Origin: a virus
Lineage: Duplodnaviria; Heunggongvirae; Uroviricota; Caudoviricetes
Length of the DNA stretch: 18,657 bases
IMG/VR virus record: IMGVR_UViG_2529293015_000004
Location: 1 to 18,657 of that record
Reading direction: 5' to 3' (one strand)
In this document: in pieces, positions 92 through 18,657 of the stretch
Layout of the letters: every line of letters starts with the position of its first letter
Position numbering within the stretch: position 1 is the first letter of the stretch
Program-made: the position numbers and the translations under genes
The notes under the pieces: generated by a model
What the model was told of the DNA's origin: nothing
What the model saw: only the letters and a program-made list of their open reading frames with translations
The model's database searches: none

Positions 92-96
92 ATTAT

Positions 97-114
97 GCCC
101 GGCATCAACCGGGC
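97..114. terminator. GC hairpin (gcccgg-catcaa-ccgggc) between convergent gene ends; candidate bidirectional terminator
   Basis: Perfect 6-bp stem with 6-nt loop; A/T-rich flanks on both sides. Confidence 0.35.
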
Positions 115-123
115 ATTCTTCCA

Positions 124-1454: not shown

Positions 1455-1479
1455 AATGGCAGCCTCCTTTTGCTAATTT

Positions 1480-1570
1480 AAGGAGCTACCGCGTGAGGTC
1501 TCAATCTCAATGGCGGTAGCACTGACTGGGTTGAGACTACCGGCGCAAAAGGGAACCGGCCTGCCTTTCG
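1480..1570 (-). ncRNA. Structured leader upstream of icd/ant with antisense elements; candidate c4-like antisense RNA
   Basis: Nested inverted repeats (gctaccgc 1485-1492 / gcggtagc 1513-1520; ggtctcaatc 1495-1504 / ttgagac 1531-1537); 1545-1566 (gcaaaagggaaccggcctgcc) is near-complementary, in the transcript, to the icd ribosome-binding region (1460-1475); a second direct copy of ggtctcaatc lies at 1687-1696. Boundaries are approximate. Confidence 0.3.
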
Positions 1571-1639
1571 GCAGCCCAGCCAGCACTACCATTGATCTCT
1601 GAGCTAAACGCTACGTATGGCTGTGCGATGGCATGACAC

Positions 1640-1663
1640 AAAAAAAAGACGCTTTTGGCGTCT
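1640..1663 (-). terminator. Rho-independent terminator downstream of pacB
   Basis: On the minus strand: stem agacgc/gcgtct with 5-nt loop, followed by a run of 8 U (complement of A8 at 1640-1647). Confidence 0.5.
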
Positions 1664-1794
1664 GTGTCGCCTTTTGCATTATCCGGGGTCTCAATCCCGG
1701 CACCCATTTTAATGAGGTGCCTGATAAGCATAAACCGAAAATGCCTCAAGGCGCAAGAGGTCAGGTTCAATGTAACATCGGCAGTTAAAAAACA

Positions 1795-1811
1795 CAATTT
1801 ATTAGAGCAAA
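1795..1811 (-). promoter_or_regulatory. C1-type operator-like site (15/17 to ATTGCTCTAATAAATTT) at the pacB stop, upstream of the antirepressor module
   Basis: Plus strand reads caatttattagagcaaa, which is the reverse complement of the consensus with two edge mismatches. Confidence 0.45.
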
Positions 1812-1814
1812 TAT

Positions 1815-3299
1815 TCATTCATTAAGCCATGCCAGAGCTTCATCAACCTGCGCTTCGTCTTCGACGCTAAGCACTTCATCCTGGGGAACATAATCCGCCA
1901 GCATAGCGAAACAATATGTATCCCAATGGTCTGGTGAGTGCAGGTTGAGTTTTTTCTTCATATCCTCCTTACTCATCACCTTCCATTGACCTGCGGAGTT
2001 AATCCCTACAGGGATTTTCGACGCTTCCTCAATAGTTTCATTACCCTTATCCAGTCTCATACGACCAGATTTTACGGCCTCTGCGGCTTGAACGTTGGCA
2101 TAAGCACGTTTATCAAAGTACAGGCTCTTATCTTCACGGCTATGCATCTTTTTACCCCAGCGTATACGCTGTACGGTAATACCATAATACTCGTACATCA
2201 GATCCGCCGTTGCTTTACCCAGGCCATCGCCGTCTATCGCTATGGTGATATTTGGGAATCGCTCAGGATTACATTCTGCGAAAATTTTGGCGGCAAGCTG
2301 CGTTTCTGTAACGTCTGTGTATTCCAGCATTCGATAGTTGATTACACGGCGTTTATTTCGCTGGCCGGACACCATCATGATATTGATAACGGACTTATCC
2401 CGTCCCGTACCACCAGCAACGTCCACACATGCAAGCCAGCCCCATCCTTTGGCAATCTTGACTTTCCGCCGCGTTGCGCGTTCAACCTCATCACGTCCAA
2501 GAAGGAAGCCATCCTGTGATTTAGGGAATAGGCCGCGTACCTTAATCATGTACATAGGGTTATCACGCCCGCCGTACTCCGCCAGCTTCATTTTGATAAA
2601 TGCTGGCGTTACCAGCGGTGATTCCTCACTGTTAAGCGTGATCGCCGTATAAACGCCATCAGGGTTACCAGGACGCTTGGCCAGTTTATGGTGTGTATCG
2701 TAGAAATAGCCGCTTGGGCGTGTAGGCTGTGACAGCAATAAGATGCGGTTATCCTGTCCAGTAAGAGCACCGGTGATGATACCGAAAGCTCTATCACTGA
2801 CACCGGAGGCTTCATCGATAATATACAGAAGATGATCTGCGTGTTCACCGGCGAGAGCTTCTTCACTTCCCAGACGAAAGCCCTTCGGTACTACAGTCCA
2901 TACACCTTTACCAGTAACCTCATAGAAAGCGGTTTCTGTCAGAACAAAATAATCAGCAAGCCATGGGAAACGGCTGGTGGCAGTAGCCCAGTTTATCTTG
3001 ATGTACTTGAATATACCGGTCATTACCTGCTGAATTTTGTTCGCAACGATAATAGCGCGGGCACCGGGATACATGATTATGAACAACATGATCATGATAG
3101 AAGTCATGTCTGATTTCCCGGTACCGTGACCAGACGAAACAGATGTCTTGCTACCCTGTTCCTGCACAGACTCAATAATCAGATCCTGCTGCCAGGTAGG
3201 TGTTTTGCCGAACAAAACATCAGCGGCCGCAATCCAGTCATAACGATATAGCGCCACCAGCTCGCGCCAACGTGGATCCGTTACGCAACTTCTGGCCAT
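1815..3299 (-). CDS. pacB: Terminase large subunit (PacB-like, 494 aa)
   Basis: 494-aa ORF immediately downstream of and overlapping pacA (ATGA at 3299); position and size match P1 PacB as recalled; no terminase motifs were individually verified. Confidence 0.8.
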
Positions 3300-4492
3300 T
3301 AATCATCATCCCCGTATAGCTTGCGGGTAACTTCTTCGTCTTCCTCCTCGTCTTCGTCCAAGTCTTGTTCCAGCCATGGGTCGTTTGATACACCTTCAGT
3401 ATCAACATCTCCATAACCGCCTGTATCAACGATATCGGCGATTTCTTCCCTACGCTGCTCAATCCACAATGCGGCATCGGCGCGGCGGTTGGCGGCCCGT
3501 TCTCGCGCAACTTTGTCCAGATCTTCAAGAGAAGGGCCACCGACGGCTGTTTGCCTTTCCTCATCATCGGTATTTGTCTTAGGAGCACGCAGATCGGCTT
3601 TGATTTGCTCCAGCATCAGGGGCGGCACTTTTCCACCATGCGCCTCGATGAATTCAGCTGCTTCCAGCACTGACCAGTTATTTTCACGCTTTCGTTCGTA
3701 TGCCAGCTTAACAATGCCAGCTTGCCCCATAGACAAAGCGTGCTTTTCCGCCTCCCGGCTTTCTTTTCGATAGTTATTCCGGATGCTGTAAATGGTGTTG
3801 ATCAGGCTGCTTATCTGCGCGGAACAGCTGTTTAGCATGCTCGCGATACGGTATTCAGGCGGAGTACCTTCTTCATCGTCTTTTTGCTGATCGCGCATTT
3901 CCTGCACCAGGCGAATACACGTATCCCTGGCGTTCTCCAGCATAAGGAGATGAGAAAGAGACTTTTCAAGAAGAGTGGTTTCCAGAACATCGGCCCCGGA
4001 CCGACGCAACATAGCGCGCGCGGCCTTCCGCGCTTCAACGTTATCTATCAGGTAATCGCCAGCTTCGAATTCAAAGCGTTCACCATCATCATCCAGGGTG
4101 TCGCGTTCCAGGCGATCACGTAAGGTCCGGTGGGCGCGGGTGATCACGTCATGATCATCTGAACGATCATTTATGCGCTTATTTTGGCGCTTCGCATTCT
4201 CGACTGCGGCACTGACAACGGCATTAACTCTCTGTTTTTCCGCTATTTCAGCCGCAATATGATCACCTGCATGTTGATCATTAGAGTGATCAATGATCAT
4301 GCTTTTTAGTGGCTTCCTGACTGGCTTATTTGGCTTGCGGCTGTCCGCAGTCCTAGTGTCTTCTTTGAAGGCACGGAGATAACGACGTGCGGTATTAGGG
4401 TTAAGATTAAACTCGGCGGCATACTGTGCGATGGTGTAACCACCATCTCGCGCCAGGCGAGCAAAATTCTTCTTGTGATCGTCCCAGGTCAC
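3299..4492 (-). CDS. pacA: Terminase small / pac-recognition subunit (PacA-like, 397 aa)
   Basis: 397-aa ORF with an N-terminal HTH-like segment ([21 protein letters not shown]) and acidic C-terminus; contains the pac-like hexamer clusters internally; size matches P1 PacA as recalled. Confidence 0.75.
4141..4299. other. pac-like packaging site: seven TGATCA/GATC hexamers in clusters of 3 (4141-4170) and 4 (4260-4299)
   Basis: Hexamers at 4141, 4152 and 4164 on one side and 4260, 4275, 4287 and 4294 on the other, about 90 bp apart, inside pacA; the span (~159 bp) and 3+4 arrangement match the described P1 pac site. Confidence 0.6.
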
Positions 4493-4577
4493 TTATGCTT
4501 CCTTTCGTAAAAACTCTTTTTGACGCGAGGGTAACGAAAGTCACATGTCAAAAGGCCCGGAACGGGCAAGCAATCAA

Positions 4578-5030
4578 TCAGATACGTGCGGATGTGGCAT
4601 TACCGTAATGACGGTGCTGACGGGCCACCTTATTGAAAAGTTGACGCGCCATTACCCAAGGCTGGTGCTCCCGGCGTTCCTTTTCGTCCTGCGTCATATA
4701 GAGTTCGTTCTGGAGTTTTTCATCAAACCGGCGCGGCGCGCGGCTGCGGCGAAAGAATTCAGGATTCAAAGAGTGGATCTGAAATCTACGTGGGCGTGTA
4801 CTGTCATCAATCAAAACAGACGAATACTTAGACACAGCGATAGCCTTTAAGCGCAGATAAACGTCGCGCTTATCGACATCCAGATGCGGGTATTCCTTTT
4901 CAAGGATTGCTGCGAGTTCTTTCGCTGATAGAAGAGACTTAGTGCGGATCATGTAATCCGCAATCTCATACGATGTTATTCGTGAGTGATTTATTTCCAT
5001 GAAGTGGCGTCCCTGCCAGTTAAGTAACAT
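4578..5030 (-). CDS. 150-aa phage protein in the position of the P1 late-promoter activator (Lpa / gene 10)
   Basis: ORF directly upstream of pacA on the same strand, with an operator-like site upstream; assignment is by synteny and size only. Confidence 0.4.
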   Translation of the reverse strand: MLLNWQGRHFMEINHSRITSYEIADYMIRTKSLLSAKELAAILEKEYPHLDVDKRDVYLRLKAIAVSKYSSVLIDDSTRPRRFQIHSLNPEFFRRSRAPRRFDEKLQNELYMTQDEKERREHQPWVMARQLFNKVARQHRHYGNATSARI

Positions 5031-5100
5031 CCTGTCACCTACTGATTAGCCCATGTCAACTAATCAACGTGGAATATAATACCCTCTATTAAATAAATAG

Positions 5101-5117
5101 CAACACATTAGAGCAAT
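5101..5117 (-). promoter_or_regulatory. C1-type operator-like site (13/17; core ATTGCTCTAAT exact) upstream of the Lpa-like gene
   Basis: Plus strand caacacattagagcaat; lies about 70-90 bp upstream of the 4578-5030 gene start. Confidence 0.4.
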
Positions 5118-5118
5118 T

Positions 5119-6162
5119 TTATCTAACGCTCGACGAATGACTTGTGATAACGCCGACTCCAAGCGCGTAATCAAAGAACAATCGTTGATGCATCGCCAGC
5201 CTACCGTGCGTCTTCTCCCAATTATCGCGGTCACGCTCAATATCACGCTGGCATGACTGGCACAGAGGAATTGCGTAAATGTCATGCGCGCATAATCGAC
5301 TATGACGAACGATATAAGGCGTAATGTGAGCGCCAGCTCCCGCCGCTCCACACCCACAACATGGACGTGAAGCAACAAAGTCCATGTACTCAGGTAATTT
5401 TAGCGATTGCAGTTTTGGTATTTTGAAATGCGCCATGCCAGGGTCGGAGTCAACATCCACAGGGCATACTTTTGCACGCATCGGCGCGGCGCGTTCTTCC
5501 ATCATCTGAACATATGCTGTAGCGCGATCGTCATACGGGCGAATATCCGCCTCTTTCAGAGGCCCGCTATCCTGCGTTGCAGTCTTAATCTTATTTATTG
5601 ATATACGGCAGACTTCTTCCGGCATCAGGTGCATCATGTCGCGCATGAAAGCCCACCAGCACAGTTCCTGAATACTTAAATCATGGCCATCTGAAAACCC
5701 CATTTCCTGACGGGCGACATCCAGTATCCAGTTAACGCGATTATTATGCAGCGTTTCTTTCAGCTCATTAAAACCACGCATCCGGTAATGGTTATCGTGA
5801 TGCCAGCACAACAACACCGCGCTATTGTCTCGTTCAGCGTGGACAATATGGTTGTCACACCAACTACGATCTGCGGTCTGGCATTGCCCCTCTTTCCTGC
5901 GCAACCACGCCACCAGCGAGTCAATTCCACCAATACGGCGAAACAGTTCATCGCTGTTAAAAAACGGCTGCAACGCCTCATTTGTTGCCATGGTTTGCTC
6001 GGAAACAACGAGGCCGTCGTCCATGTGCTCGATCAACTCACGCGGCACCGGCTCCATAATAAATTTACGGCCAGCCTCCACCAGCTTTCTGACTTCCTGA
6101 TCCACTTTGAATGTGGCGACGCCAAGCTCTTTTTGTACAAAGGGAGTAATTACGGCTTTCAC
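5119..6162 (-). CDS. 347-aa phage protein with HNH-like motif and Cys-rich C-terminus (PdcB-like position)
   Basis: Motif ...[25 protein letters not shown]... resembles an HNH nuclease core; C-terminus has ...RPCCGCG...H...C..C..C. Confidence 0.5.
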
Positions 6163-6189
6163 ATCACACCTTTCATCACTGATTGGGCT

Positions 6190-6369
6190 TTATCTGCTGC
6201 CCGGCATTCTCTGTTTAAGCACAACCATTTCCTGACGGCATAACACAGCAATAGCGGTCCTGGCACCAATTTGCTTACCAACCAGGTATTGCTTTACCTC
6301 GCGGCGACTCACGCCATCAAGAAGCATCTTTAACGCTTCACGGGACAACTTGTTGTATTTACGTGCCAT
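6190..6369 (-). CDS. Small protein (~59 aa from the ATG at 6369; PdcA-like position)
   Basis: ORF between doc and the 347-aa gene; the ATG at 6369-6367 avoids overlap with doc; basic, possibly HTH-like. Confidence 0.35.
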   Translation of the reverse strand: MARKYNKLSREALKMLLDGVSRREVKQYLVGKQIGARTAIAVLCRQEMVVLKQRMPGSR

Positions 6370-6373
6370 TAAT

Positions 6374-6754
6374 CTACTCCGCAGAACCATACAATCTACG
6401 TAACGTGTCGGCGACAGAAGATACAGATATCTCTCCGGTCGCAGCCTCTACGGTAAGGTCTGCCAGTTCAGGTGAATCAAATACCTGCACCCCATTACGG
6501 CGTAGAAATAGCAGCGCACTGTTTAGCGCGGTACGCTTATTGGCATCATTGAATATATGCCCTCTCGCTGTAGCCACCAGGTAGGTGGCAGAGACTTCGA
6601 AAAGGTCGGTGATCTCTTCGTAGGCAACTCTGGCCTGAACTCTCCCGATAATGGCCTCTGCCCTACCCGGATCTGACATTCCCGGCAGGCCGCCGTAGCG
6701 GCTTATATTCGCATCATGAAGCGCAATAAGTTCTTCCGGTGATATATGCCTCAT
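6374..6754 (-). CDS. doc: Doc toxin (Fic/Doc family kinase), 126 aa
   Basis: 126 aa with the Doc/Fic motif HIFNDANKR; immediately downstream of and overlapping the 73-aa Phd-like gene; sequence is recognised as essentially P1 Doc (from memory). Confidence 0.9.
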
Positions 6755-6975
6755 TATCGGTTAACCAGTTCCTTGTTGGTGGAGTCCAGGGTGTCAAACA
6801 GGGATGCAAATTCAGCATCCAGCGCCGCTTTTTTGTAGGCTTCGAAAGTAGCCTTGCTGACAATTACTGCTGGCTCACGGCCTCTGCGGGTGATTTCAAC
6901 CTCTTCCCCGGCCTCAACATTGTTGAGCACTTCAGAAAGATTGCCGCGCGCGGTACGGAAGTTAATGGATTGCAT
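6754..6975 (-). CDS. phd: Phd antitoxin, 73 aa
   Basis: 73-aa [44 protein letters not shown]..., recognised as Phd; GAGG Shine-Dalgarno 6 nt upstream; stop overlaps doc start. Confidence 0.85.
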
Positions 6976-6984
6976 AAATACCTC

Positions 6985-7012
6985 GTGTACTCGTTATGTG
7001 TACACAATTATA
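6985..7012 (-). promoter_or_regulatory. phd-doc promoter/operator: -10 TATAAT (rev-comp of 7007-7012) followed by palindrome TGTGTACACA (6997-7006) and a GTGTAC half-site (6985-6990)
   Basis: Perfect 10-bp palindrome between the -10 hexamer and the Shine-Dalgarno, a typical autorepression operator position. Confidence 0.45.
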
Positions 7013-7151
7013 AACTTCACAGGCATAAAGCACCAGCACTTTGCGGCTTAACAAAACTCCAGGCAGGTCATTCATAGCCTAATGTCTGAACTGTTAAAGC
7101 CACCAAGTTGTTGTAGAATCACATCCAATTACATAAGCCTGAAATAAGTGG

Positions 7152-8714
7152 ATGAAAATGACAAGTATTCAACAACGTGCAGAGCTTCATCGTCAAATCT
7201 GGCAAATTGCTAACGATGTCAGGGGTTCGGTCGATGGATGGGATTTTAAGCAATACGTTCTGGGCGCACTTTTCTACCGTTTTATCAGCGAAAATTTTTC
7301 CAGCTATATTGAAGCCGGTGATGACAGTATCTGTTATGCGAAACTGGATGACAGCGTAATTACTGATGACATTAAAGACGATGCCATCAAAACCAAAGGC
7401 TACTTCATCTATCCAAGCCAGCTTTTCTGCAACGTAGCTGCGAAAGCAAATACCAATGACAGACTGAATGCAGATTTAAACAGTATCTTCGTTGCTATCG
7501 AAAGTTCTGCTTACGGTTATCCTTCAGAAGCTGACATCAAAGGTTTGTTTGCTGATTTCGATACCACCAGTAACCGCCTGGGTAACACCGTTAAAGATAA
7601 AAATGCCCGCCTGGCTGCGGTTCTGAAAGGGGTTGAAGGGTTAAAACTTGGTGACTTCAACGAACATCAGATTGACCTGTTCGGTGATGCCTATGAGTTC
7701 CTGATTTCTAACTATGCGGCAAATGCCGGTAAGTCAGGCGGTGAGTTCTTTACACCGCAGCACGTCTCTAAGCTGATTGCACAACTGGCTATGCACGGGC
7801 AGACCAGCGTTAACAAAATCTACGACCCGGCAGCGGGTTCCGGCTCACTGTTGTTGCAGGCGAAAAAACAGTTTGATAACCACATCATCGAAGAAGGCTT
7901 TTTCGGTCAGGAAATCAACCATACGACCTATAACCTGGCGCGTATGAACATGTTTTTGCACAATATCAACTACGACAAGTTTGATATCAAGCTGGGTAAT
8001 ACACTGACTGAGCCGCACTTCAGAGATGAAAAACCGTTTGACGCCATCGTATCTAACCCACCGTATTCGGTGAAATGGATTGGCAGCGATGACCCGACGC
8101 TGATTAACGATGAACGTTTTGCCCCGGCTGGCGTTCTGGCCCCCAAATCCAAAGCTGACTTTGCGTTTGTACTACATGCGCTGAACTATCTTTCGGCCAA
8201 AGGTCGTGCTGCGATTGTCTGCTTCCCGGGTATTTTTTACCGTGGCGGCGCAGAGCAGAAAATCCGTCAGTATCTGGTCGATAATAACTATGTCGAAACC
8301 ATAATTTCACTGGCACCGAACCTGTTCTTTGGCACCACCATTGCAGTAAACATTCTGGTGCTGTCTAAGCATAAAACGGATACCAAAGTTCAGTTTATTG
8401 ACGCCAGCGAACTGTTCAAAAAAGAGACTAACAACAATATCCTGACCGACGCCCATATCGAACAGATTATGCAGGTATTTGCCAGCAAGGAAGATGTTGC
8501 TCATCTGGCGAAATCTGTCGCGTTTGAAGCCGTTGTAGCGAATGACTATAACCTGTCGGTGAGCAGTTATGTGGAAGTGAAAGATAACCGCGAAATTATC
8601 GATATTGCTGAGCTGAATGCGGAACTGAAAACCACGGTCAGCAAAATCGACCAGTTGCGTAAAGATATTGATGCGATTGTAGCTGAAATTGAAGGCTGCG
8701 AGGTGCAGAAATGA
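7152..8714 (+). CDS. hsdM: Type I R-M DNA methyltransferase subunit HsdM (520 aa)
   Basis: AdoMet motif [10 protein letters not shown] and catalytic NPPY (VSNPPYS); stop overlaps the hsdS start (ATGA at 8711-8714). Confidence 0.9.
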
Positions 8715-9913
8715 GCGAGTTAAGTTATCTGGAAAAATTGCTGGATGGGATTGAGGTTGAGTGGAAAACACTAGGCAGTATAGCTGAACTAAAGCGAGGC
8801 ACATCAATTACAAAAAAAGATGTTATTGATGGAACCATCCCCGTAGTCGCTGGCGGACGTACACCAGCTTATTATCATAATACTAGTAATCGCGACGGAC
8901 AAACAATTGTTATCGCAGGTTCTGGTGCGTATGCGGGATTCGTTAGTTGGTGGGAGGAACCAATTTTCGTATCGGATGCATTTACTGTAAAACCTCATAA
9001 TATTTTGTTACCACGATATTGCTATCATTTTTTGATGAATATGCAACAACAACTCCATGAGTTTAAGAGTGGTGGTGGTGTTCCGCATGTTTATCCACGT
9101 GATGTATCACCTATTTTGATACCAATCCCCTGCCCGGATACCCCAGAAAAATCCCTTGCCATCCAGTCTGAAATCGTGCGGATTCTGGATAAATTTACTG
9201 CACTTACCGCTGAGCTTACCGCTGAGCTTAACATGCGTAAAAAACAGTACAACTACTATCGTGACCAGTTGTTGAGTTTTAAAGAGGGTGAGGTTGAGTG
9301 GAAGACTTTGGGGGAAATTGGAGATTTTACATATGGATATGCAGCCAAAGCCATGGATTCAGGAGATGCCCGTTTCGTGAGAATTACTGACATAAATAAA
9401 GACGGGAAGCTATCGAAAGAAAACCCAATGTACGTTGAATTAAATGAGGAAAATGAGAAATATACCTTAGACAAAAATGATTTACTCATGGCAAGAACTG
9501 GGGCAACCTTTGGTAAAACAATGATTTTTGAAGAAGATTATCCAGCAGTATACGCTGGTTTTTTAATAAAGTTGAACCTAAATAAAACGATTATTAATGC
9601 CAAATATTACTGGCACTTTGCACAAAGTGATTTTTTTTGGGAACAGGCTAATAAATTAGTATCTGGTGGTGGGCAACCACAGTTTAATGCTAATGCACTG
9701 AAACAAGTCAGAGTACCTATTCCATACCCATCTCACCCTCAAAAATCTTTAGACGAACAGGGGCGTATTGTGGATATTCTGGATAAGTTTGATGCAATCG
9801 CAGCTTCCATCACCGAAGGTCTCCCGCGTGAAATCGAGTTGCGCCAGAAACAATACGAGTACTATCGTGATTTACTGTTCAGTTTCCCAAAACCTGAAAC
9901 TGTCAGTAATTAA
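8711..9913 (+). CDS. hsdS: Type I R-M specificity subunit HsdS (400 aa), two target-recognition domains
   Basis: Duplicated conserved regions (ILDKF...[15 protein letters not shown] and ILDKF...[15 protein letters not shown]); repeated EVEWKTLG at the start of each half; central TAELTAEL repeat. Confidence 0.85.
9203..9226 (+). repeat. Two tandem copies of 12-bp unit CTTACCGCTGAG (plus a 4-nt partial third copy to 9230) in the hsdS central conserved region, encoding LTAE-LTAE
   Basis: Read directly: cttaccgctgag cttaccgctgag ctta. Confidence 0.85.
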
Positions 9914-10034
9914 TTGACCGTTGCTACCGACCGGGCCACCTTAACATCCGGTCTGTATATAGACTATTTTTTACGCGCCGGAAGTCACTCTTAACGCCCT
10001 TCCGGCCCTTGCCAGACGGCACAAAGGATGCGCT

Positions 10035-13000
10035 ATGACTCATCAGACACACACCATTGCTGAATCCAATAACTTTATCGTCCTTGATAAGTACATCAAA
10101 GCTGAGCAAACAGGCGACAGCTATCAGAGCGAATCGGACCTGGAACGTGAACTAATTCAGGACCTGCGGAATCAGGGCTATGAATTTATACCCGTAAAAT
10201 CACAGTCAGCGATGCTGGCCAACGTTCGGGAACAGCTTCAGAACCTCAATGGTGTGGTGTTTAATGACAGCGAGTGGCGGCGTTTCACGGAGCAATATCT
10301 GGACAACCCGAGTGATGGTATTCTGGATAAAACCCGTAAAATCCATATCGACTATATCTGCGACTTTATTTTTGACGACGGGCGTCTTGAGAACATCTAT
10401 CTGATCGATAAAAAGAATCTCATGCGCAACAAAGTGCAGATTATCCAGCAGTTTGAACAGGCAGGTTCTCACGCTAACCGTTATGACGTAACTATCCTGG
10501 TTAATGGCTTGCCTCTGGTACAAATCGAACTGAAAAAGCGCGGCGTGGCGATTCGTGAGGCTTTCAACCAGATACATCGTTACAGTAAAGAGAGTTTTAA
10601 CAGCGAAAATTCCCTGTTTAAATATCTGCAACTGTTTGTCATTTCTAATGGCACCGATACCCGTTACTTTGCCAACACCACAAAGCGCGATAAAAATAGT
10701 TTTGACTTCACCATGAACTGGGCGAAATCAGACAACACGCTGATTAAAGACCTCAACGACTTTACCGCTACCTTTTTCCAGAAACATACTCTGCTGAATG
10801 TTCTGGTGAACTACAGCGTGTTTGACAGTAGTCAGACGCTACTGGTGATGCGACCGTACCAGATTGCAGCTACCGAACGAATCTTATGGAAAATCAACAG
10901 CTCCTATAAAGCGAAAAACTGGTCTAACCCCGAAAGCGGTGGCTTTATCTGGCACACCACTGGTTCCGGTAAAACACTGACCAGCTTTAAAGCCGCGCGT
11001 CTGGCAACTGAACTGGACTTTATTGATAAAGTCTTCTTCGTGGTCGACAGGAAAGACCTCGATTACCAGACGATGAAGGAATATCAGCGTTTTTCGCCAG
11101 ATAGTGTTAACGGCTCGGAAAATACAGCAGGTCTTAAACGAAATCTGGATAAGGACGATAACAAAATTATCGTCACCACTATTCAGAAACTTAATAACCT
11201 GATGAAAGCAGAAAGCGACCTGCCTGTATACAATCAGCAAGTGGTGTTTATATTTGATGAATGCCACCGCAGCCAGTTTGGAGAAGCGCAGAAAAACCTG
11301 AAGAAGAAATTCAAACGCTATTATCAGTTTGGTTTTACCGGCACACCTATTTTCCCGGAAAACGCTTTAGGCTCAGAAACAACCGCCAGCGTATTTGGTC
11401 GTGAATTGCATTCGTATGTAATTACCGATGCGATTCGTGACGAAAAAGTGCTCAAATTCAAGGTGGACTACAACGATGTGCGGCCACAGTTTAAGTCTTT
11501 AGAGACAGAAACTGACGAGAAAAAACTGAGTGCGGCTGAAAATCAGCAGGCGTTTCTTCATCCCATGCGTATTCAGGAAATCACGCAATATATCCTGAAC
11601 AACTTCCGCCAGAAAACCCACCGTACTTTCCCTGGTTCCAAAGGTTTTAATGCCATGCTGGCAGTAAGCAGCGTGGATGCTGCAAAAGCCTATTATGCGA
11701 CGTTTAAACGGTTACAAGAGGAAGCCGCTAATAAATCGGCTACCTATAAACCGCTGCGTATTGCGACAATCTTCTCCTTTGCCGCCAATGAAGAACAAAA
11801 TGCCATTGGTGAAATTTCCGATGAAACTTTTGATACCAGCGCAATGGACAGCAGTGCTAAAGAGTTTCTGGACGCTGCAATTCGTGAATATAACAGCCAT
11901 TTTAAAACTAACTTTAGCACCGACAGTAACGGTTTTCAGAACTACTATCGTGATTTAGCCCAGCGGGTTAAAAATCAGGATATCGATCTGCTAATTGTCG
12001 TGGGGATGTTCTTAACCGGCTTCGATGCTCCAACATTGAACACGCTATTCGTCGATAAAAACTTACGTTATCACGGCCTGATGCAGGCATTTTCCCGCAC
12101 TAACCGCATTTATGACGCCACTAAAACCTTCGGTAATATCGTCACTTTCCGGGATCTGGAACGCTCAACTATTGATGCCATAACGCTGTTTGGTGACAAA
12201 AACACCAAAAATGTGGTGTTAGAAAAGAGTTATACAGAGTATATGGAAGGCTTTACTGATGCTGCTACAGGTGAAGCTAAACGCGGCTTCATGACAGTAG
12301 TTTCAGAACTGGAACAACGGTTCCCTGACCCTACCAGTATTGAAAGTGAAAAAGAGAAGAAAGACTTCGTTAAACTGTTTGGCGAATACCTGCGTGCCGA
12401 GAACATCCTGCAAAACTATGATGAATTTGCCACGCTAAAAGCCCTGCAACAAATCGATCTTAGCGATCCTGTTGCGGTAGAAAAATTCAAAGCAGAACAT
12501 TATGTGGATGATGAAAAGTTCGCTGAATTGCAAACAATTCGTCTCCCTGCTGATCGCAAGATTCAGGATTATCGTTCTGCCTATAACGATATTCGCGACT
12601 GGCAGCGCCGTGAGAAAGAAGCTGAGAAAAAAGAGAAATCAACCACTGACTGGGATGACGTAGTTTTTGAGGTCGATTTGCTGAAGTCTCAGGAAATAAA
12701 CCTGGATTATATCCTTGGACTGATTTTCGAACACAACAGACAAAATAAAGGCAAGGGCGAAATGATCGAAGAGGTCAAACGCTTAATTCGTTCAAGTCTA
12801 GGGAACCGTGCTAAAGAGGGCCTGGTGGTCGATTTTATTCAGCAAACGAACCTGGATGATTTACCGGACAAAGCCAGCATCATTGACGCATTCTTTACGT
12901 TTGCTCAACGCGAACAGAAACGTGAAGCAGAAGCATTGATAAAAGAAGAAAATCTCAATGAAGAGGCGGCGAAACGCTATATTCGCACATCTTTAAAACG

Positions 13001-13151
13001 CGAATACGCCACCGAAAATGGTACAGGATTAAATGATACATTACCAAAACTTAGTCCGTTAAATCCGCAATATAAAACGAAAAAACAGACGGTTTTCCAG
13101 AAAATCGTCTCGTTTATTGAGAAGTTTAAAGGCGTAGGCGGAAAAATATAG
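10035..13151 (+). CDS. hsdR: Type I R-M restriction subunit HsdR (1038 aa)
   Basis: N-terminal PD-(D/E)xK-like region ([19 protein letters not shown]); helicase motifs [32 protein letters not shown]; separated from hsdS by 121 bp, consistent with its own promoter. Confidence 0.9.
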
Positions 13152-13230
13152 CCCAATTCGTGTTTTTCTTGCGGGTTCTTAATTAAACCCGCAAGAGCTC
13201 GTGGGGTTCCAAATGGCTAATATACTCCCC

Positions 13231-13317
13231 TTACCCATGCGCGACGATGCCGCCAAAAGTGATAGAGAACAGCCAGAAATAGATCGCGGCCATAATGATT
13301 TTGAATGCCGTGTTCAT
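13231..13317 (-). CDS. Candidate small hydrophobic peptide (28 aa, MNTAFKIIMAAIYFWLFSITFGGIVAHG)
   Basis: ATG preceded by AGGAG at 8-nt spacing; single predicted transmembrane-like helix; operator-like site and promoter-like elements ~85 bp upstream; below the ORF-track size cut-off. Confidence 0.3.
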   Translation of the reverse strand: MNTAFKIIMAAIYFWLFSITFGGIVAHG

Positions 13318-13345
13318 ATTTTCAGCTCCTGTGATTGATTGGATA

Positions 13346-13376
13346 CATGCCGCGTCTTGCGGCATGTTTTTATTTT
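13346..13376 (+). terminator. Rho-independent terminator (stem catgccgc/gcggcatg, loop gtctt, then tttttatttt); probably ends the hsdR transcript
   Basis: 8-bp perfect stem followed by a T-run on the plus strand, ~195 bp after the hsdR stop; lies in the 5' leader of the minus-strand peptide ORF. Confidence 0.5.
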
Positions 13377-13399
13377 CACTTTCTCTGTTTTAAAAATCA

Positions 13400-13416
13400 A
13401 GATTTATTAGGGCAAT
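13400..13416 (-). promoter_or_regulatory. C1-type operator-like site (15/17) overlapping the stop of the HAD-like gene, upstream of the small peptide ORF
   Basis: Plus strand agatttattagggcaat; on the minus strand ATTGCCCTAATAAATCT, followed 17 bp later by TAAAAC (possible -10). Confidence 0.4.
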
Positions 13417-13922
13417 TATTGTTGATGGAGAAGCGCATTTTCATACTCCCTGACCATTAACGTAAGTACGCCGTGTCTCCTGAAAACACGCGCCACTTCA
13501 ATCTTATCTTCCAGCGCGAACGCAATTTTACTTAGACCAATTTTCTTAAGGAGATCAATCTTTGCTGGGCCGTCATTTCTGTCATCGGTGGCAGGACGCA
13601 TAGATAGCAAAGGCTCAGCCCCATTTGTTACGTGCTTACGCAACCAAGCTCGTGTTTTATCCCTGGCTATCTCACAGCGCCCGGTTACAAACCAGAGCGT
13701 GTAAATGCCGGACAACTGGCGCACCATATCAATAACTGGAGTGATGGGAGCATCAGTGTCACAGGCAAGGTTAAACTCGTTCCAGTGCTCTGTTAATGCA
13801 CCTTTGCCAGGTGGTGGAAGTAAATGCAGCCTGTCTTCCGTTGCCTCTGATATCGTTCCATCAATATCTACTATGACGATGTACGGACGTTCCTGGTGTG
13901 CGTGTTTATTGAAAATACTCAA
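13416..13922 (-). CDS. HAD-superfamily phosphatase-like protein (168 aa)
   Basis: HAD motif I DIDGT near the N-terminus (IVIVDIDGTISE), downstream T and K motifs (FVTGR, KIDLLKK). Confidence 0.55.
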   Translation of the reverse strand: MSIFNKHAHQERPYIVIVDIDGTISEATEDRLHLLPPPGKGALTEHWNEFNLACDTDAPITPVIDMVRQLSGIYTLWFVTGRCEIARDKTRAWLRKHVTNGAEPLLSMRPATDDRNDGPAKIDLLKKIGLSKIAFALEDKIEVARVFRRHGVLTLMVREYENALLHQQ

Positions 13923-13994
13923 ATGCCCTCCTCATTGGACGAAAAAAATGCTGGTGGGCGCACTCCACCAGCATTAAAAGTGACACTGTAACTG

Positions 13995-15257
13995 TCAGCG
14001 AACATAAATAGTGCCGCCGTTCTCTTTTTCCCATGCATCGCTACGTGCATAGCAAACATCGAGAAGTCTTCTTGCCGCTGTTTCCTCTAAACCCAATTCG
14101 ACAACCAACTGCTCATGACGGCGGGTAACCACATCAAACAGGGTATGCAGCCCTTTAGCTGCCAGATCATCAATAAATTCCGGTTCGAACGGCAGCTCTG
14201 CCTCTGCCAACATAACCTCTTGCGCCCACTCAACTCGACGGACCAGTTCCGGGCGGCGGCTTTCCATCTCTTTACAGATCAATTCATGGAAGAACTCTAC
14301 CCAACCTTCCGGCTGGAACTCGCGGAAAATGGCCAACGGCTGGAAGTTTGGCATCAACCATTCGTTGATCCGGATATCAATGGCATAGCCCATGTCGCAG
14401 CAGAACTGATAAGCAAAGTCCAGCTTAGAAACGATATAAGGACGCTCGTTATTGAACTCTTTAGGCGATGAGATCCCATAAGCCAGGAGGCGCGGGAAGA
14501 AGGAGATTTGCCCTAACGTCGGATGAAGTTTGCTTGCAGGGAAACGGCGCTCAGTAATGCCATACATTTCCTTCTTGAGCGTCGCAAATTTGGCATTCTC
14601 ATTAACCAGCGCGGTAACCTCTGCTTTTTTATTAGCAAATGCCACGCGCGCCTCGCTTGCATCTTTAATAGTTTTTTTGAGCTGTTGGTTAAGGTCGGCG
14701 ACCTGCTTACGCAGTTCCTGTCGCTCGCTTTTAGCTTTGTTATAGCGTTTCTCAAGGTTAAAAGGATCAAGTTTCATGATCTCTTTATATTGAGATTTTA
14801 GCGTTGAAATCTGTGAGTTCCGCAGTTCAACCATCGCGGTCATTTCATTGAGTTTTGTTTCCAGCTCAATGCTTATACGTTCGGCATTATCAGCACGCTG
14901 GTTGGCGTCATGCGTCGCATCGTCGATCGCGTCCTGTTGCTGGCGTTTCAAATGTTCAATTTCCAGCTGAAGCTCTTCAATTTCTTTACCCTTCAGACCG
15001 AGATCCAACTGCATATTTTCAGCTGCATCTACCAGGGAGTTATGGCTATCAGCTTCTGCGTTATAAACATCAATAAGCTGTGCGTGAAGCATCTCCGCTG
15101 ACTGAACCGCATTATCAAAAAAACGTGCTGTGAGGTCATCACAACTAACGCGGCGTTGCGCGGCCCGGATGTTCTGGATAATGGCCGGGATACCGGCATT
15201 CAGGACATCAGGGATACATACATTTTCGATTGATTGGTTTTGTGCTGAAGTGCTCAT
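13995..15257 (-). CDS. Hypothetical protein (420 aa): long central coiled-coil-like region and a C-terminal domain of unknown function
   Basis: Long ORF translationally coupled to the upstream 72-aa gene (TGAaATG); heptad-like charged segments at roughly residues 80-220; no recognisable catalytic motif. Confidence 0.6.
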   Translation of the reverse strand: MSTSAQNQSIENVCIPDVLNAGIPAIIQNIRAAQRRVSCDDLTARFFDNAVQSAEMLHAQLIDVYNAEADSHNSLVDAAENMQLDLGLKGKEIEELQLEIEHLKRQQQDAIDDATHDANQRADNAERISIELETKLNEMTAMVELRNSQISTLKSQYKEIMKLDPFNLEKRYNKAKSERQELRKQVADLNQQLKKTIKDASEARVAFANKKAEVTALVNENAKFATLKKEMYGITERRFPASKLHPTLGQISFFPRLLAYGISSPKEFNNERPYIVSKLDFAYQFCCDMGYAIDIRINEWLMPNFQPLAIFREFQPEGWVEFFHELICKEMESRRPELVRRVEWAQEVMLAEAELPFEPEFIDDLAAKGLHTLFDVVTRRHEQLVVELGLEETAARRLLDVCYARSDAWEKENGGTIYVR

Positions 15258-15258
15258 T

Positions 15259-15477
15259 TCAAAGTTCCGTATTAGCTTGTGCTTCGGTCATTTTTCCTAA
15301 GTATGAAGGAGGAAGGACTACGCAATTTGTATCCAGTCCCTCACCTATGGCAGCCTGTAAAATTCTGGCTAAGGTGAGTCTCTTGTTGCGATACCTGGTG
15401 ATGACATGCCTGATACCGCCGGTCGGCGTAACAAAGGCGATCAGCCAGTAGTGATATTTCCGTCGGAATGGCCACAT
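15259..15477 (-). CDS. Hypothetical small protein (72 aa), first gene of an operator-controlled operon
   Basis: ATG preceded by AAGGTG at 5 nt; operator-like site immediately upstream; stop adjacent to the start of the 420-aa gene. Confidence 0.5.
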   Translation of the reverse strand: MWPFRRKYHYWLIAFVTPTGGIRHVITRYRNKRLTLARILQAAIGEGLDTNCVVLPPSYLGKMTEAQANTEL

Positions 15478-15490
15478 AGTGCACCTTGTA

Positions 15491-15507
15491 GATTGCTCTA
15501 ATAAAAA
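15491..15507 (+). promoter_or_regulatory. C1-type operator-like site (14/17: attgctctaataaaaaa)
   Basis: Directly upstream of the Shine-Dalgarno/ATG of the 72-aa gene; forms an inverted pair with the site at 15541-15557. Confidence 0.45.
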
Positions 15508-15527
15508 ACGTGATGAGTGTACATCAC
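15502..15527 (-). terminator. Rho-independent terminator (stem cgtgatg/catcacg, 6-nt loop, U6) ending the upstream operon
   Basis: On the minus strand the 7-bp perfect stem is followed by a run of 6 U; lies between the two operator-like sites. Confidence 0.5.
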
Positions 15528-15540
15528 GCTTTAAAAATAT

Positions 15541-15557
15541 GGAATTATTAGAGCAAT
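15541..15557 (-). promoter_or_regulatory. C1-type operator-like site (14/17), inverted relative to 15491-15507
   Basis: Plus strand ggaattattagagcaat; on the minus strand ATTGCTCTAATAATTCC, then a 17-bp spacer and TAAAGC. Confidence 0.45.
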
Positions 15558-15558
15558 A

Positions 15559-16260
15559 TTATTCTGATTCTCGCTCAAAAAATGAGCTGATAAGGGGAAG
15601 CCAATCCTCTGACACTTCGCGAGGTCGCGGTTTGCCGTGGAAAAAGATTATTCGGCAGTCTTTTGGTAATGCCCCATTCCCCCTGGAGTAACGCGCGCTC
15701 GCATATTTTGAACCAGGTTCCACAACATCGGCCTTGTAACTTACAAACCATCCTGGATACAGATCCTGAAATGCTGGTGTATCATCGCCCATAACCTTTC
15801 GTAAGAACCCCTGGTCACCCCAACACTCAGTAGTGACACAACGAGAAATCCAACCTTCCGGATCTTGCCAGAATGAACTCCAGATATGCGCTTTAACACT
15901 ATTTGGTATCCACAGGGCACCGCTGCCACGATATTGTGGATGGTAAAAATCCCTAAGCATGGTGAAGCTGGTTGGTGGATGCTCTAGGATTGGGCGTATA
16001 TCACCGGCAATAACCGTGTCCAAATCCAGATAGAACAGATCATCGGTTATATCCGGTCGGAACAACTCGATTTTCGCCCACCAGCCACGGCACTTTTGCC
16101 ACTGGTTGATCAATGGGACAACTTTGACGCCAGGTACATGTAAACGCTTCAGGTCTGTCAGGCAAATAATTTCATAGCCTTTTGGCAGTTGATTAACCAG
16201 CCACTGCACATCGGAAGCGTTATAGTCACCACCAGAGCGAAAAACTAAAGCAATCTTCAT
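15559..16260 (-). CDS. Putative GT-A fold glycosyltransferase-like protein (233 aa)
   Basis: DxD motif in a hydrophobic context ([13 protein letters not shown]) and a C-terminal FHGKPRP resembling the GT8 H-x-G-x-x-KPW region; ATGA coupling to the upstream phosphatase gene. Confidence 0.5.
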
Positions 16261-16934
16261 TCTGCACCATCACCTTTCACTTTCATCAATGTCAGGTTTC
16301 CGCAAAATACGGCACCAGTGTCGATATACTGCTGATTCCAGAATGTCTTCGGGCTTTTCACCGGAGTGTGACCAAAGATAAAACGATCTGCGCCCGAAAT
16401 TTCGCCACCAATATCATCCATCGAATCACTGATACGCTCGCGCGCCCAGACAACGTTGAAAAGCGGCACCTCCTTACCGAATTGGTATTCATTATCCGGA
16501 TAGTCGGCATGGGCTATAACGATAGTTTCTTGCCCGGTGTTCAACTCAATGATATAGGGCAGACGCTTTACCAGCTCCACCAGCGCCCAGGCTAATATTT
16601 CCTGATCAGTGTCCAGCATGAAGAACCATTGTCCGCCATTCATTAGCCAGTTATTCACGTTGCCATCTGGACTTAACGCATCAATCATCAGCCGCTCATG
16701 GTTCCCCATCACTGCCCTGAACCAGGGCATCTGCAATAGTTCCAGACATTCGACATTTTCAGTACCGCGATCGATAAGGTCGCCGACCGATATCAGTAAA
16801 TCCTGCGCCGGGTCAAAATCCACACGATGGAGTTCGGACATCAGTCTGGTGTAGCAACCATGCAGATCACCAACAACCCAGACATTCCTGTATTTGGTAC
16901 CGTCGATACGGTGATAAATTGTGGGTGCCATCAT
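16257..16934 (-). CDS. ppp: Lambda-type Ser/Thr protein phosphatase (metallophosphoesterase), about 225 aa
   Basis: Motifs GDLHG, GDLIDRG, GNHE; the likely start is one of the tandem ATGs at 16934/16931, which overlap the upstream gene's TGA (ATGATGG). Confidence 0.85.
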
Positions 16935-17557
16935 GTATTCTTCAGCCATTCTTTAAGAGTCATCTGCGGAATACCTCCCATTTTCCCGCATGAAACAACG
17001 TCAATCCGTTCACGCGCAGACTGGAATAACAAAGGCAGGTGACTTAGATTTTTTGGCGTGCCGCCGGAGTGAACGCGTGGTTCTTGTGTAGCGTCAACGC
17101 CCACCAGGGCGACATGTTTGAATCCGATATGGAAAGCCAGGTTCAGAGCACCATATGCACTATTGCCGCTGGCAATTTCATTCTCATCTTCGCAAAGTCC
17201 GAAATGAGCGGACCAGCGCCACGCCCACCACTCGGGAGAATTCGTATTTTTTGGCTCCATGCCGCGTTCAGCCACACGACGGAAGCACAGAACGCCATCT
17301 CTGACTTCACGTTCTTTAACATCGGGTAGTGCCATGCAATAACAAACACCACGGCGACGGCGGCCACGACCAACGCGCCGCATATTGTCTGGGGATGGAT
17401 CAAGGGTGAAAAAATAAGAAGCGCGGTTAAGCCAGTCGATGGCCCCATTGACCGCTATAATCGGCACTCCGCGCGGCGCAACAAAGTTTGCGGCGCTTGG
17501 GCCACTGCCGACGATAATAACGCGATCACTGCCTCTAAATTTATTCTTGGGAAACAT
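16931..17557 (-). CDS. Cst-II/MptE-like Rossmann-fold protein (208 aa), paralog B
   Basis: Motifs [27 protein letters not shown]...VALVGVD, paralleling sialyltransferase Cst-II (GNGPSL ... CN ... SG...LSGID) and MptE/DUF115-type proteins. Confidence 0.55.
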
Positions 17558-18117
17558 TGAATTGCACTGCTCCTACTTGCATTCAAAATATGTAAATCTG
17601 CGTGTTTTTTGCGGGTATCCAGGAACTGCTGTTGCCATTTTGAAATAGACACCTGCGTTGGATTCCGTAGTGCTTGAGGGTGCGCGCCATGCCAATGAAG
17701 GCCGTTTTGCAGAGAACAGTCATAGCCGACTAATACCACTACTTCAGCCCCTGATTCAGCAGCCAGACTGATAGCCTGCGCGCCGCTATTTACCCCTTCC
17801 GCCGGTCCACAATATCGCCTGTACTCCAACGAAAATGATTTCGCCGCCGCCAGGTTGGCTGTCACTTTGCGGAATCTCCCTCCCGGTATGGTGGATCCGT
17901 ATTGCTTCCACCATGACAAATCACCGGCGTATAAGGCATAAATGTCATCGAACATCTGCCAGGAATTGTTAACCGCGATGATTGAACAGCCAGTTTTTTC
18001 TATAGCAGCACAGTCCTCACGAGTGAGTGACGGACCGCTACCGACACAAAAAACAGTCCTAGTCGCCCTGGGTGGTATGTTCATTCTCAGCTGCAAATTC
18101 AGCCTCCAGGCGAGCAT
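17455..18117 (-). CDS. Cst-II/MptE-like Rossmann-fold protein, paralog A (start uncertain: 18117 or internal ATG at 18084)
   Basis: Motifs VFCVGSGPSL, IIAVNN, NSGAQAISLAAESGAEVVVLVGYD; overlaps paralog B by about 100 nt. Confidence 0.55.
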   Translation of the reverse strand: MLAWRLNLQLRMNIPPRATRTVFCVGSGPSLTREDCAAIEKTGCSIIAVNNSWQMFDDIYALYAGDLSWWKQYGSTIPGGRFRKVTANLAAAKSFSLEYRRYCGPAEGVNSGAQAISLAAESGAEVVVLVGYDCSLQNGLHWHGAHPQALRNPTQVSISKWQQQFLDTRKKHADLHILNASRSSAIQCFPRINLEAVIALLSSAVAQAPQTLLRRAECRL

Positions 18118-18214
18118 TCATTTCAGCGATTACCGGGTCCACTACAGCATCTGTTTCCTGTTCATTACGCGGCATGATCGATGCCAGCGATTCATAATTA
18201 GCCTTGGATGACAC
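18059..18214 (-). CDS. Candidate small acidic protein (~51 aa, GTG start)
   Basis: GGGAGA Shine-Dalgarno 7 nt upstream of GTG at 18214; below the ORF-track cut-off; overlaps the longest version of paralog A. Confidence 0.25.
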   Translation of the reverse strand: MSSKANYESLASIMPRNEQETDAVVDPVIAEMNARLEAEFAAENEHTTQGD

Positions 18215-18280
18215 GATTATTCTCCCGATGTTAATGTGCGCTATATCAAATGGCGCATATGCACTAATTAATTTATTATT

Positions 18281-18613
18281 TTAAGCAGCATACAACCACT
18301 TGTCGCCGTTCAATACATGCTCAATAGCCTCACCCTTTTTAAGGCTTATGTATTCCAGGATGGCGGTTATCGCTTGTTCTGCACCATACGCAAGAACGAC
18401 GTAGTAACCTTCCTCTCTAAGCCTGCGCATCCAGGCGATCTGCTCTTTCGTCGGGGCTTTACCATTTGGTTCTTTAAGCTCAATTCGCATGCCGTGATAA
18501 ATACCGCATGCTTTATCGAGACTCATGTCCGGATAACCTTTTTTCTGTCCTTCAGCCTTCATTTTCCCGGCGGTTGCTTTTGAACGTTTCCCTCCGTTAG
18601 GCGTTGCATGCAA
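18281..18613 (-). CDS. VRR-NUC-like (PD-(D/E)xK) nuclease domain protein, 110 aa
   Basis: G-YPD ... IELK ... EQIAWMRRL pattern typical of VRR-NUC domains. Confidence 0.5.
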   Translation of the reverse strand: MHATPNGGKRSKATAGKMKAEGQKKGYPDMSLDKACGIYHGMRIELKEPNGKAPTKEQIAWMRRLREEGYYVVLAYGAEQAITAILEYISLKKGEAIEHVLNGDKWLYAA

Positions 18614-18657
18614 CAGCTCATAGATGTCAGGGTGCTTGCGTTCGAAGTAATCAAAAA

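Follow-up and report, generated by a model that had tools for sequence, protein, structure and literature searches.

A conserved 28-codon open reading frame behind the C1 operator Op88/OpmgT as a probable membrane microprotein gene of P1-like phage-plasmids

Does a short hydrophobic open reading frame (ORF) of 28 codons, lying on the minus strand and convergent with the restriction gene hsdR, encode a peptide, and if so, of which kind? This question is raised by a locus in the tailed-phage record IMGVR_UViG_2529293015_000004, of which a stretch of 18,657 nucleotides (positions 1 to 18,657) is called the window here. The window matches about 900 Escherichia coli plasmids at ≥95% identity, with pET6.1-IncY as the top match (99.8%), and, judging from the annotation of this nearest relative, it is a P1-like (IncY) phage-plasmid. 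An initial annotation made from the bare sequence had described the ORF as an unannotated gene with its own operator-like promoter, facing an hsdR terminator and resembling the genes of type I toxins or small membrane modulators. In our assessment the ORF is probably a real gene, which would encode a lineage-specific single-pass inner-membrane microprotein and form the promoter-proximal cistron of the early operon that is headed in P1 by the C1 operator Op88/OpmgT. The regulatory parts of this locus and the mosaic of hsd and P1 DNA were already known; the coding gene is new, a modest addition in the form of a microprotein family restricted to P1-like elements.

Conservation of the 28-codon frame

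The ORF and its good Shine-Dalgarno sequence are present as the initial annotation had described them: the translation is exact (MNTAFKIIMAAIYFWLFSITFGGIVAHG, followed by a TAA stop), and the AGGAG stands 8 nt before the ATG. Since an open frame of 28 codons is not beyond chance, with a probability of (61/64)^28 or about 0.26 by our own arithmetic, the significance of the ORF has to come from its conservation. Conservation in related elements, which the initial annotation had named as a check on the ORF, was indeed found. Among 84 P1-like loci, representing 55 haplotypes, neither a stop nor a frameshift occurs within the 28 codons; one of these loci has lost the region of the stop codon, and one partially matching locus, rearranged after codon 19, was set aside. 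Variable alignment columns in these P1-like loci make up 16 out of 84 in the ORF compared to 52 out of 115 in the sequence upstream of it.

Diverged homologues were reached by synteny with pap in the Cronobacter phage JK004 (72% identity in Pap) and from there, using the JK004 peptide, in Salmonella phage-plasmids; additional members, including some on metagenomic contigs, were obtained with a leader pattern and an alignment query. On the minus strand of the window the order of genes is small ORF, pap, pmgS, pmgR, pmgQ, ppp, and the diverged homologues likewise follow ppp-pmgQ-pmgR-pmgS(-pap), the operator and a hairpin. The complete order shared by these relatives comprises the operator, the -35 and -10 hexamers, the hairpin, a motif ending in CAATCA, a GGAG and the ATG of a hydrophobic ORF. 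In two Salmonella plasmids (L172/L173, 2334-2500) pap is missing and the unit of operator, leader and ORF stands directly after pmgS, which argues that this unit is independent of pap.

Three types of family members can be distinguished: the P1 type with 28 aa, a B type with 46-65 aa (e.g., MHTVFKLAMAAFYIWIFTIVFTGIAKATPVN...) and a C type with 53 aa (e.g., MHLIFKLAITAFYAWMLTVVITSFKPDANMKASRYLGNLSASYDCDQQGDDSL). The residues M1, K6, A11, and W15 are invariant across the family. The proportion of non-synonymous differences (pN, 0.00-0.49) was lower than that of synonymous differences (pS, 0.13-1.0, with synonymous sites saturated) in all 36 pairs compared. In line with this, the second codon position is the least variable one (19, 10, and 22 variable columns out of 24 for positions 1, 2, and 3), and the sense frame is the only frame that is open in all eight lineages. 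An antisense ORF of 45 aa (13201-13338, plus strand) was rejected, as it contains stops in four of the eight lineages.

The family is narrow in every collection that was searched. A tblastn search of the 28-aa peptide against phages retrieved near-identical P1-like copies only, a scan of genome contigs with a Pap alignment yielded two loci, both of them close relatives, and a leader/ribosome-binding-site pattern applied to metagenome contigs produced 62 matches with one true family member among them. An exhaustive hidden Markov model search of 1.84 billion representatives likewise returned P1-like members only. Pfam, PHROG, NCBIfam, and PADLOC gave no meaningful match to the peptide family; the best PHROG match, to families of unknown function, had E=0.039, and none was found at E<0.01.

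The statement that the ORF is unannotated applies to the reference records of P1 and P7, in which the stretch between operator and pmgT is non-coding, its 170 bp being treated as an untranslated leader, and in which tblastn places the 28 codons at an unannotated position (AF234172 84392-84475). It does not apply to all records: the nearest relative, among other records, carries a 44-aa version (13231-13365) called by the PGAP pipeline, the record of phage SJ46 lists the ORF as “membrane protein,” and the exact 28-aa form is present in nr (P0008). The 44-aa model was rejected, as its ATG (13365) lies inside the stem of the leader hairpin and is not preceded by a ribosome-binding site. Upstream of the ribosome-binding site of the 28-aa form, the frame of the 44-aa model is broken in relatives by a 4-nt deletion and by a 2-nt insertion in the hairpin loop, so that the 28-aa form is the conserved one. 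In diverged lineages the frame is also closed by a stop shortly before the homologous ATG, and in JK004 and the Salmonella plasmids this ATG is the first possible start, with none further upstream. No paper describing the 28-aa ORF was found in the literature.

With a mean Kyte-Doolittle hydropathy of 2.10 over residues 7-25, the peptide is predicted to form a single transmembrane helix. AlphaFold2 (AF2), run on the family alignment, returned a confident helix for residues 2-23 of a 53-aa homologue (predicted local distance difference test, pLDDT, ~90). A topology with the N-terminus inside and the C-terminus outside, derived from the net charge of the tail, was withdrawn: since positive residues flank the helix on either side, the topology is not callable from charge.

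Operator, promoters and leader hairpin

The features of the locus are listed in Table 1, for which the GenBank annotation of P1 was transferred to window numbering by adding 9726 to the L004 coordinate. Positions 83759-84482 of P1 (AF234172) align with window positions 13227-13950 at 96.4% identity, and the segment that heads pmgT-pmgU-pmgV in P1 with OpmgT, P1pmgT, and P2pmgT is the same DNA as in the window, with the operator, both promoters and pap mapping one-to-one. The operator-like site that the initial annotation had placed about 85 bp upstream of the ORF is the C1 operator OpmgT (Op88), 83-99 nt upstream of the ATG, and the promoter-like hexamers next to it are those of the predicted promoters P1pmgT and P2pmgT; operator and promoters together span 55-99 nt upstream.

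Table 1. Coordinates of the features around the 28-codon ORF, numbered along the window.
Feature	Position	Strand	Basis or remark
28-codon ORF with TAA stop	13317->13231	minus	translation
Shine-Dalgarno AGGAG	13330-13326	minus
Leader motif CCAATCAATCAC	13331-13342	minus	between hairpin and ribosome-binding site
9-bp GC-rich leader hairpin ACAUGCCGC-AAGAC-GCGGCAUGU	13345-13367	minus	terminator-like on plus strand
Predicted sigma-70 promoter P1pmgT	-35 TTGATT 13400-13395; -10 GAAAAT 13377-13372	minus	P1 annotation
Predicted alternative promoter P2pmgT	-35 TTGCCC 13415-13410; -10 TAAAAC 13392-13387	minus	annotation only
C1 repressor operator OpmgT (former Op88), 17 bp, ATTGCCCTAATAAATCT	13416-13400	minus	P1 annotation and consensus match
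pap, 168 aa, 3′-phosphatase / HAD_PNKP	13416-13922	minus	upstream of operator
Mosaic junction TAAGGGG	13227-13233	minus	P1 homology stops at 13227, 4 nt beyond the stop codon
11-bp hairpin right after hsdR stop	13167-13196		belongs to hsd cassette
hsdR, 1038 aa	10035-13151	plus	convergent with peptide gene
hsdS, type IC cassette	8711-9913	plus
hsdM, type IC cassette	7152-8714	plus
Type IC hsdM-hsdS-hsdR cassette, whole	7152-13151	plus
doc, of the phd/doc pair just upstream of hsdM	6374-6754	minus	annotation of relative

The window operator shows two mismatches to the asymmetric 17-bp consensus of C1 operators (ATTGCTCTAATAAATTT), for which four matches were observed in the window compared to 0.14 expected by chance; those at 15492-15508 and 15541-15557 correspond to Op86b and Op86a of P1. 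A C1-operator-like site with two mismatches (TTTGCTCTAATAAATTG, 1795-1811, minus strand) lies between the ORFs 1537-1818 and 1815-3299. OpmgT is annotated as a monovalent C1 operator in the P1 record, which also points to the deposited Op88 sequences X98146 and M25414, and the same site is named Op(hea) in P7 (AF503408). While the identity of the operator is established here by comparison, its repression by C1 is taken from the P1 literature as recorded in GenBank. The operator overlaps both predicted promoters as well as the stop codon of pap. It is found in all lineages, with the form ATTG(C/T)TCTAATAAAT(A/C)T in the diverged relatives, and these relatives also keep the hexamers of P1pmgT, itself a predicted promoter, with their spacing of 17 nt. 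At position 6 of the operator (window 13411), the window and its nearest relative read ATTGCCC, whereas nearly all other copies read ATTGCTC (common version ATTGCTCTAATAAATMT). This rare T-to-C change, present in 2 of the 55 haplotypes, might weaken the binding of C1.

The hairpin in the leader of the ORF had been taken for the terminator of hsdR by the initial annotation. Both the hairpin and, on the plus strand, the T-run following it (TTTTTATTTTC) are present, and the structure is scored as terminator-like in this direction; yet it begins 194 nt beyond the stop codon of hsdR and is also found in P1, which has no hsdR there and from which it was inherited. According to RNA folds, a hairpin occupies the same position of the leader in every lineage, with differing sequences: beside the ACAUGCCGC/GCGGCAUGU stem, there are AGGCCAC/GUGGCCU, GGCCGC/GCGGCC, AGCCGC/GCGGCU, and GGGCACU/AGUGCCC, as well as a longer one containing GGCGGUCGC/GUGACCGCC with one G-U pair. 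The six genuine non-P1 rows used for this comparison, from which a loop-padded P1 row was left out, have standard pairing at every one of the six consensus pairs and compensatory changes on both sides at three of these. In most lineages the distance from the -10 hexamer to the start of the stem is 4-7 nt (10-11 nt in L175 and L182), and such proximity would place the hairpin at the 5′ end of the transcript or right beside it if the predicted promoters are used. An A-run upstream of the hairpin occurs in the P1 type only, being part of the GAAAAT -10 region, and accounts for the T-run on the opposite strand; the aligned leaders of relatives outside the P1 type show no plus-strand T-run at the hairpin. 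On this comparative evidence, the supposed hsdR terminator is an ancestral sense-strand leader structure that resembles a terminator on the hsdR strand by coincidence, even if it may in practice terminate transcription of hsdR. The second hairpin, directly after the hsdR stop codon, is strong and preceded by a T-run; since neither strand provides a U-tract behind it, it does not qualify as a canonical terminator whichever way it is read.

Between the leader hairpin and the ribosome-binding site lies a further conserved element. Its last seven bases (CAATCAC/T), directly before the GGAG, are found in all 14 aligned leaders despite the divergence of their flanks, and the full motif CAATCAATCA is present in 11 of them, the remaining three (L179, L180, and L183) carrying ACCAATCA. 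This motif could be a translational enhancer or a binding site for a protein. All lineages keep the GGAG. In the centroid folds the ribosome-binding site stays free of pairing, and only weak pairing is seen in one minimum-free-energy fold, which has a frequency of 0.0007.

Operon partners and the hsd replacement

Directly downstream of the ORF, the B and C types carry a gene for a winged-helix protein of 102-105 aa (90 aa, truncated, in one locus). This conserved gene of about 104 codons (L089 3745-4059, L172 2646-2918, L179-L183 4159-4473) gives weak matches to MarR, TrmB, and HTH_24. The stop codon of the ORF overlaps the next start (ATGA or TGATG) in eight homologues of 48-65 aa, belonging to the C type and to B-type loci, and a gap of 4 nt separates the two genes in three Salmonella loci with 46-aa homologues. 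A distance of 9 nt separates the stop from pmgT or upf86.8 in P1 and P7, and the next ribosome-binding site overlaps this stop. The P1 type has lost both the winged-helix gene and the C-terminal tail of the peptide.

In the window pmgT and all genes downstream of it are gone, no co-directional gene follows the ORF, and the hsd cassette enters convergently. Between phd/doc and the Op88 leader (window 6975-13227), the cassette takes exactly the place that in P1 belongs to the segment from pmgT to humD, known as variable region 8 (PMC9603915). As the remainder of the operon was replaced by the convergent hsdMSR genes, the peptide gene is left as a monocistronic orphan facing hsdR. The same arrangement, with hsdMSR between phd/doc and the Op88 segment, is found in the type IC hsd loci EcoR124, EcoDXXI, and EcoprrI, which are flanked by P1 DNA. 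The notes in AF234172 describe the flank as 96-98% identical to the DNA downstream of the hsdR genes of EcoDXXI and R124/3, and the humD/phd side as homologous to the DNA upstream of the EcoDXXI hsd genes. A mosaic of P1 and type IC hsd DNA also agrees with the title of Tyndall et al. (1997, Mol Microbiol 23:729), as cited in PMC12707154. Neither the flank notes of the P1 record nor the papers searched mention a coding sequence in the right-hand flank of hsd.

At least four unrelated downstream modules, namely pmgT/upf86.8, hsdR, a cluster with a 214-aa gene and a DUF551 tail, join at the end of the ORF (...CATGGGTA), several of them with loss of its stop codon, which results in fusion tails beginning with “HGY” (P0009-P0013; loci L211 and L213, 3080-3090). 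Judged by these junctions, the end of the ORF (...GGGTA) is a recurrent recombination boundary and the left border of variable region 8. Conjugative and other plasmids carry pieces of this P1 segment. In IncF plasmids with hsdR-proximal DNA, IS1 cuts the ORF after codon 3 (pKP164_NDM1, locus L007, 4001-4111), the same 111-bp remnant being shared by many of these plasmids (H81-H98), and in pFLI21_1 (L008, 3001-3165) an IS903B lies between pap and the ORF.

To compare the state of the gene in both settings, the 78 loci that could be scored were grouped according to the sequence downstream of the ORF. In the pmgT context, 56 of the 58 loci encode the consensus peptide, with two non-synonymous and four synonymous alleles. 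In the hsd context, to which the window belongs, the consensus peptide is found in 9 of the 20 loci, with nine non-synonymous (including G22D, G23D, G28R, and S18F) and five synonymous alleles. This difference suggests that constraint on the ORF is relaxed once the operon is lost, with the limitation that the hsd-context sample is small, phylogenetically non-independent and may hold duplicates. The copy in the window itself is intact and encodes the consensus peptide, and none of the 20 hsd-context loci contains a stop or a frameshift.

Competing readings and possible role

With known type I toxin-antitoxin systems (hok/sok, ldr/rdl, tisB/istR-1, ibs/sib, and shoB/ohsC), the locus shares a hydrophobic peptide shorter than 50 aa; a possible antisense overlap is a second common feature, limited to this window. 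A module of this type would consist of a membrane-depolarising peptide and an antisense RNA, either the hsdR 3′ untranslated region (UTR) or another one, that neutralises the mRNA of the peptide, and a short, hydrophobic product with one predicted helix would suit it. So would transcription reading through the end of hsdR, which is plausible given the hairpin without U-tract directly after this gene and which would yield RNA antisense to the ORF, to its start codon and to its ribosome-binding site. The antisense relation noted by the initial annotation holds for the window, where read-through ending at the leader hairpin would span the whole ORF, but not for the ancestral contexts: P1, P7, JK004, and the Salmonella plasmids have no convergent gene there, and the ORF heads an ordinary co-directional operon in them. 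No dedicated antisense RNA gene was detected, no plus-strand promoter-like site was found in 12900-14100, and no Rfam family reached its threshold; a GcvB match on the plus strand (13290-13373; 20.9 bits compared to a gathering score of 42, E=0.072) was taken as chance. Homology to type I systems is lacking as well, as no match to a toxin family was obtained in Pfam, NCBIfam, PHROG, or PADLOC and no relevant one in Pfam or NCBIfam at E≤1. Furthermore, the promoter is under the control of a protein repressor, the ribosome-binding site is open in the centroid folds, and only the P1 type has a T-run behind the hairpin on the plus strand. All these observations make a type I module very improbable, and what remains of the comparison drawn by the initial annotation is a gene for a small hydrophobic single-helix protein with its own repressor-controlled promoter.

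A different reading concedes that the ORF is translated and denies the peptide a function of its own: as a purely cis-acting leader ORF, its translation would prevent Rho termination or deliver ribosomes to the next cistron. The promoter-proximal position and the overlapping or adjoining start of the following gene would be expected under this reading, and the C-terminal end tolerates loss of the stop codon and fusion to unrelated tails. Nevertheless, K6, A11, W15, an aromatic residue at position 13 (Y/F) and the hydrophobic pattern have been kept despite saturation at synonymous sites, the 53-aa subfamily shows conservation of its tail as well (SFKPDANMKASR.LGNLS.SYDCDQQ), and the ORF is intact in many elements in which no downstream cistron remains. 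A role in cis alone thus appears unlikely. Somewhat less unlikely, though still doubtful, is the idea that the ORF in the window is a decaying relic without current function, orphaned when the hsd genes replaced the operon. It would account for the altered peptides, several of them radically so, in 11 of the 20 hsd-context loci (2 of 58 in the pmgT context), for the prevalence of non-synonymous over synonymous alleles there (nine and five) and for the insertions of IS1 in IncF plasmids and of IS903B in another plasmid. Against it stand the 20 hsd-context frames, all free of stops and frameshifts, the size and non-independence of the sample with its possible duplicates, and the window copy, which keeps the consensus peptide, the ribosome-binding site, the hairpin and the promoter, as well as an operator with two mismatches, one of which (C6) is rare.

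Several points weigh against our assessment of the ORF as a gene for a membrane microprotein. The family is narrow and, by the searches made, confined to P1-like elements, so that the depth available for tests of covariation and selection is limited and the sequences are not independent. The P1 type could be a truncated remnant, as it lacks the C-terminal tail of 20-37 aa of the other lineages, which is itself well conserved only within the 53-aa C type. Conservation at the amino acid level could partly reflect selection for a mere translatable hydrophobic leader, the membrane topology is ambiguous with positive charges on both sides of the helix, and the hsd-context copy may be drifting toward a pseudogene, even if it is itself intact and of the consensus type. 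No ribosome-profiling (Ribo-seq) or proteomic data for the ORF were found in the literature. Taking these points together with the conservation of frame, residues and leader, we still hold a microprotein gene to be the probable explanation.

Small phage proteins of the inner membrane include holins and superinfection-exclusion proteins, such as P1 LydA, lambda S, and T4 Imm. Hallmarks of holins are late expression by the endolysin gene, at least one transmembrane domain combined with a charged C-terminal tail, and usually a length of at least 60 aa. The peptide is shorter than any holin class, belongs to an early, C1-controlled rather than a late, Lpa-dependent unit, and has no endolysin gene as a neighbour. 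A holin was rejected on these grounds, given a position between pap and pmgT or hsdR in an early operon under operator control, the absence of lysis genes nearby and the 28 aa without a charged tail. AcrZ, MgrB, MgtS, KdpF, and CydX are single-helix regulatory microproteins which act by binding larger membrane proteins. Like these, the members of the peptide family comprise 28-53 aa with one helix and conserved aromatic or charged residues near the helix ends; unlike them, they are phage-borne and under the control of a lytic repressor, and there is no sequence relationship.

Based on the elements described above, the following course of events can be proposed for the microprotein gene. In a lysogen, C1 bound to the operator that overlaps both predicted promoters would keep the gene off. 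Upon induction or infection, the promoter would fire and the transcript would begin at or next to the conserved stem-loop. Stem-loops at the very 5′ end are known to stabilise mRNAs, as in the 5′ UTR of ompA, and by analogy the hairpin, which in every lineage would stand at or near the 5′ end of a transcript starting from the predicted promoter, probably protects this end. The exposed GGAG and the ATG would then drive translation of the peptide, which, as suggested by its hydrophobicity and the AF2 model, would insert into the inner membrane. In the non-P1 lineages, where the stop overlaps or abuts the next start, translation of the peptide may also feed the downstream cistron. By analogy to other single-helix proteins of up to 50 aa, the peptide probably binds a host or phage membrane protein. 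Its function is likely accessory: the neighbouring genes pap and pmgT-pmgV can be dispensed with (PMC10695390), and the set of genes downstream of the ORF varies freely from one relative to another.

As for the two convergent transcripts, no terminator for the Op88 transcript was found before it enters hsdR in antisense. Since the hairpin after hsdR lacks a U-tract, hsdR transcripts may in turn extend to about 13375 and run antisense over the ORF. One might go further and regard operator, hairpin and microprotein as a fixed, C1-gated “expression head” for exchangeable cargo, with the microprotein as an early membrane effector of P1 (e.g., a kil-like or exclusion factor). In the hsd variants, both transcripts would then form a mutual antisense pair, in which read-through from hsdR would damp leaky expression of the peptide in the lysogen, while the induced Op88 transcript, running antisense into hsdR, would lower restriction during lytic replication. 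We regard this combined scenario as speculative and improbable as a whole.

P1 DNA is known to have captured type IC restriction loci, and the toxin-like geometry with hsdR appears to be a side effect of this capture. As a classical model, phage P1 serves as prototype for a large phage-plasmid group that spreads resistance and defence genes. Its reference annotation does not contain the gene described here, and pipelines that call it use the wrong, 44-aa start. What would be gained is a corrected gene model, a handle on the expression of variable-region cargo and a new microprotein family for the study of membrane function.

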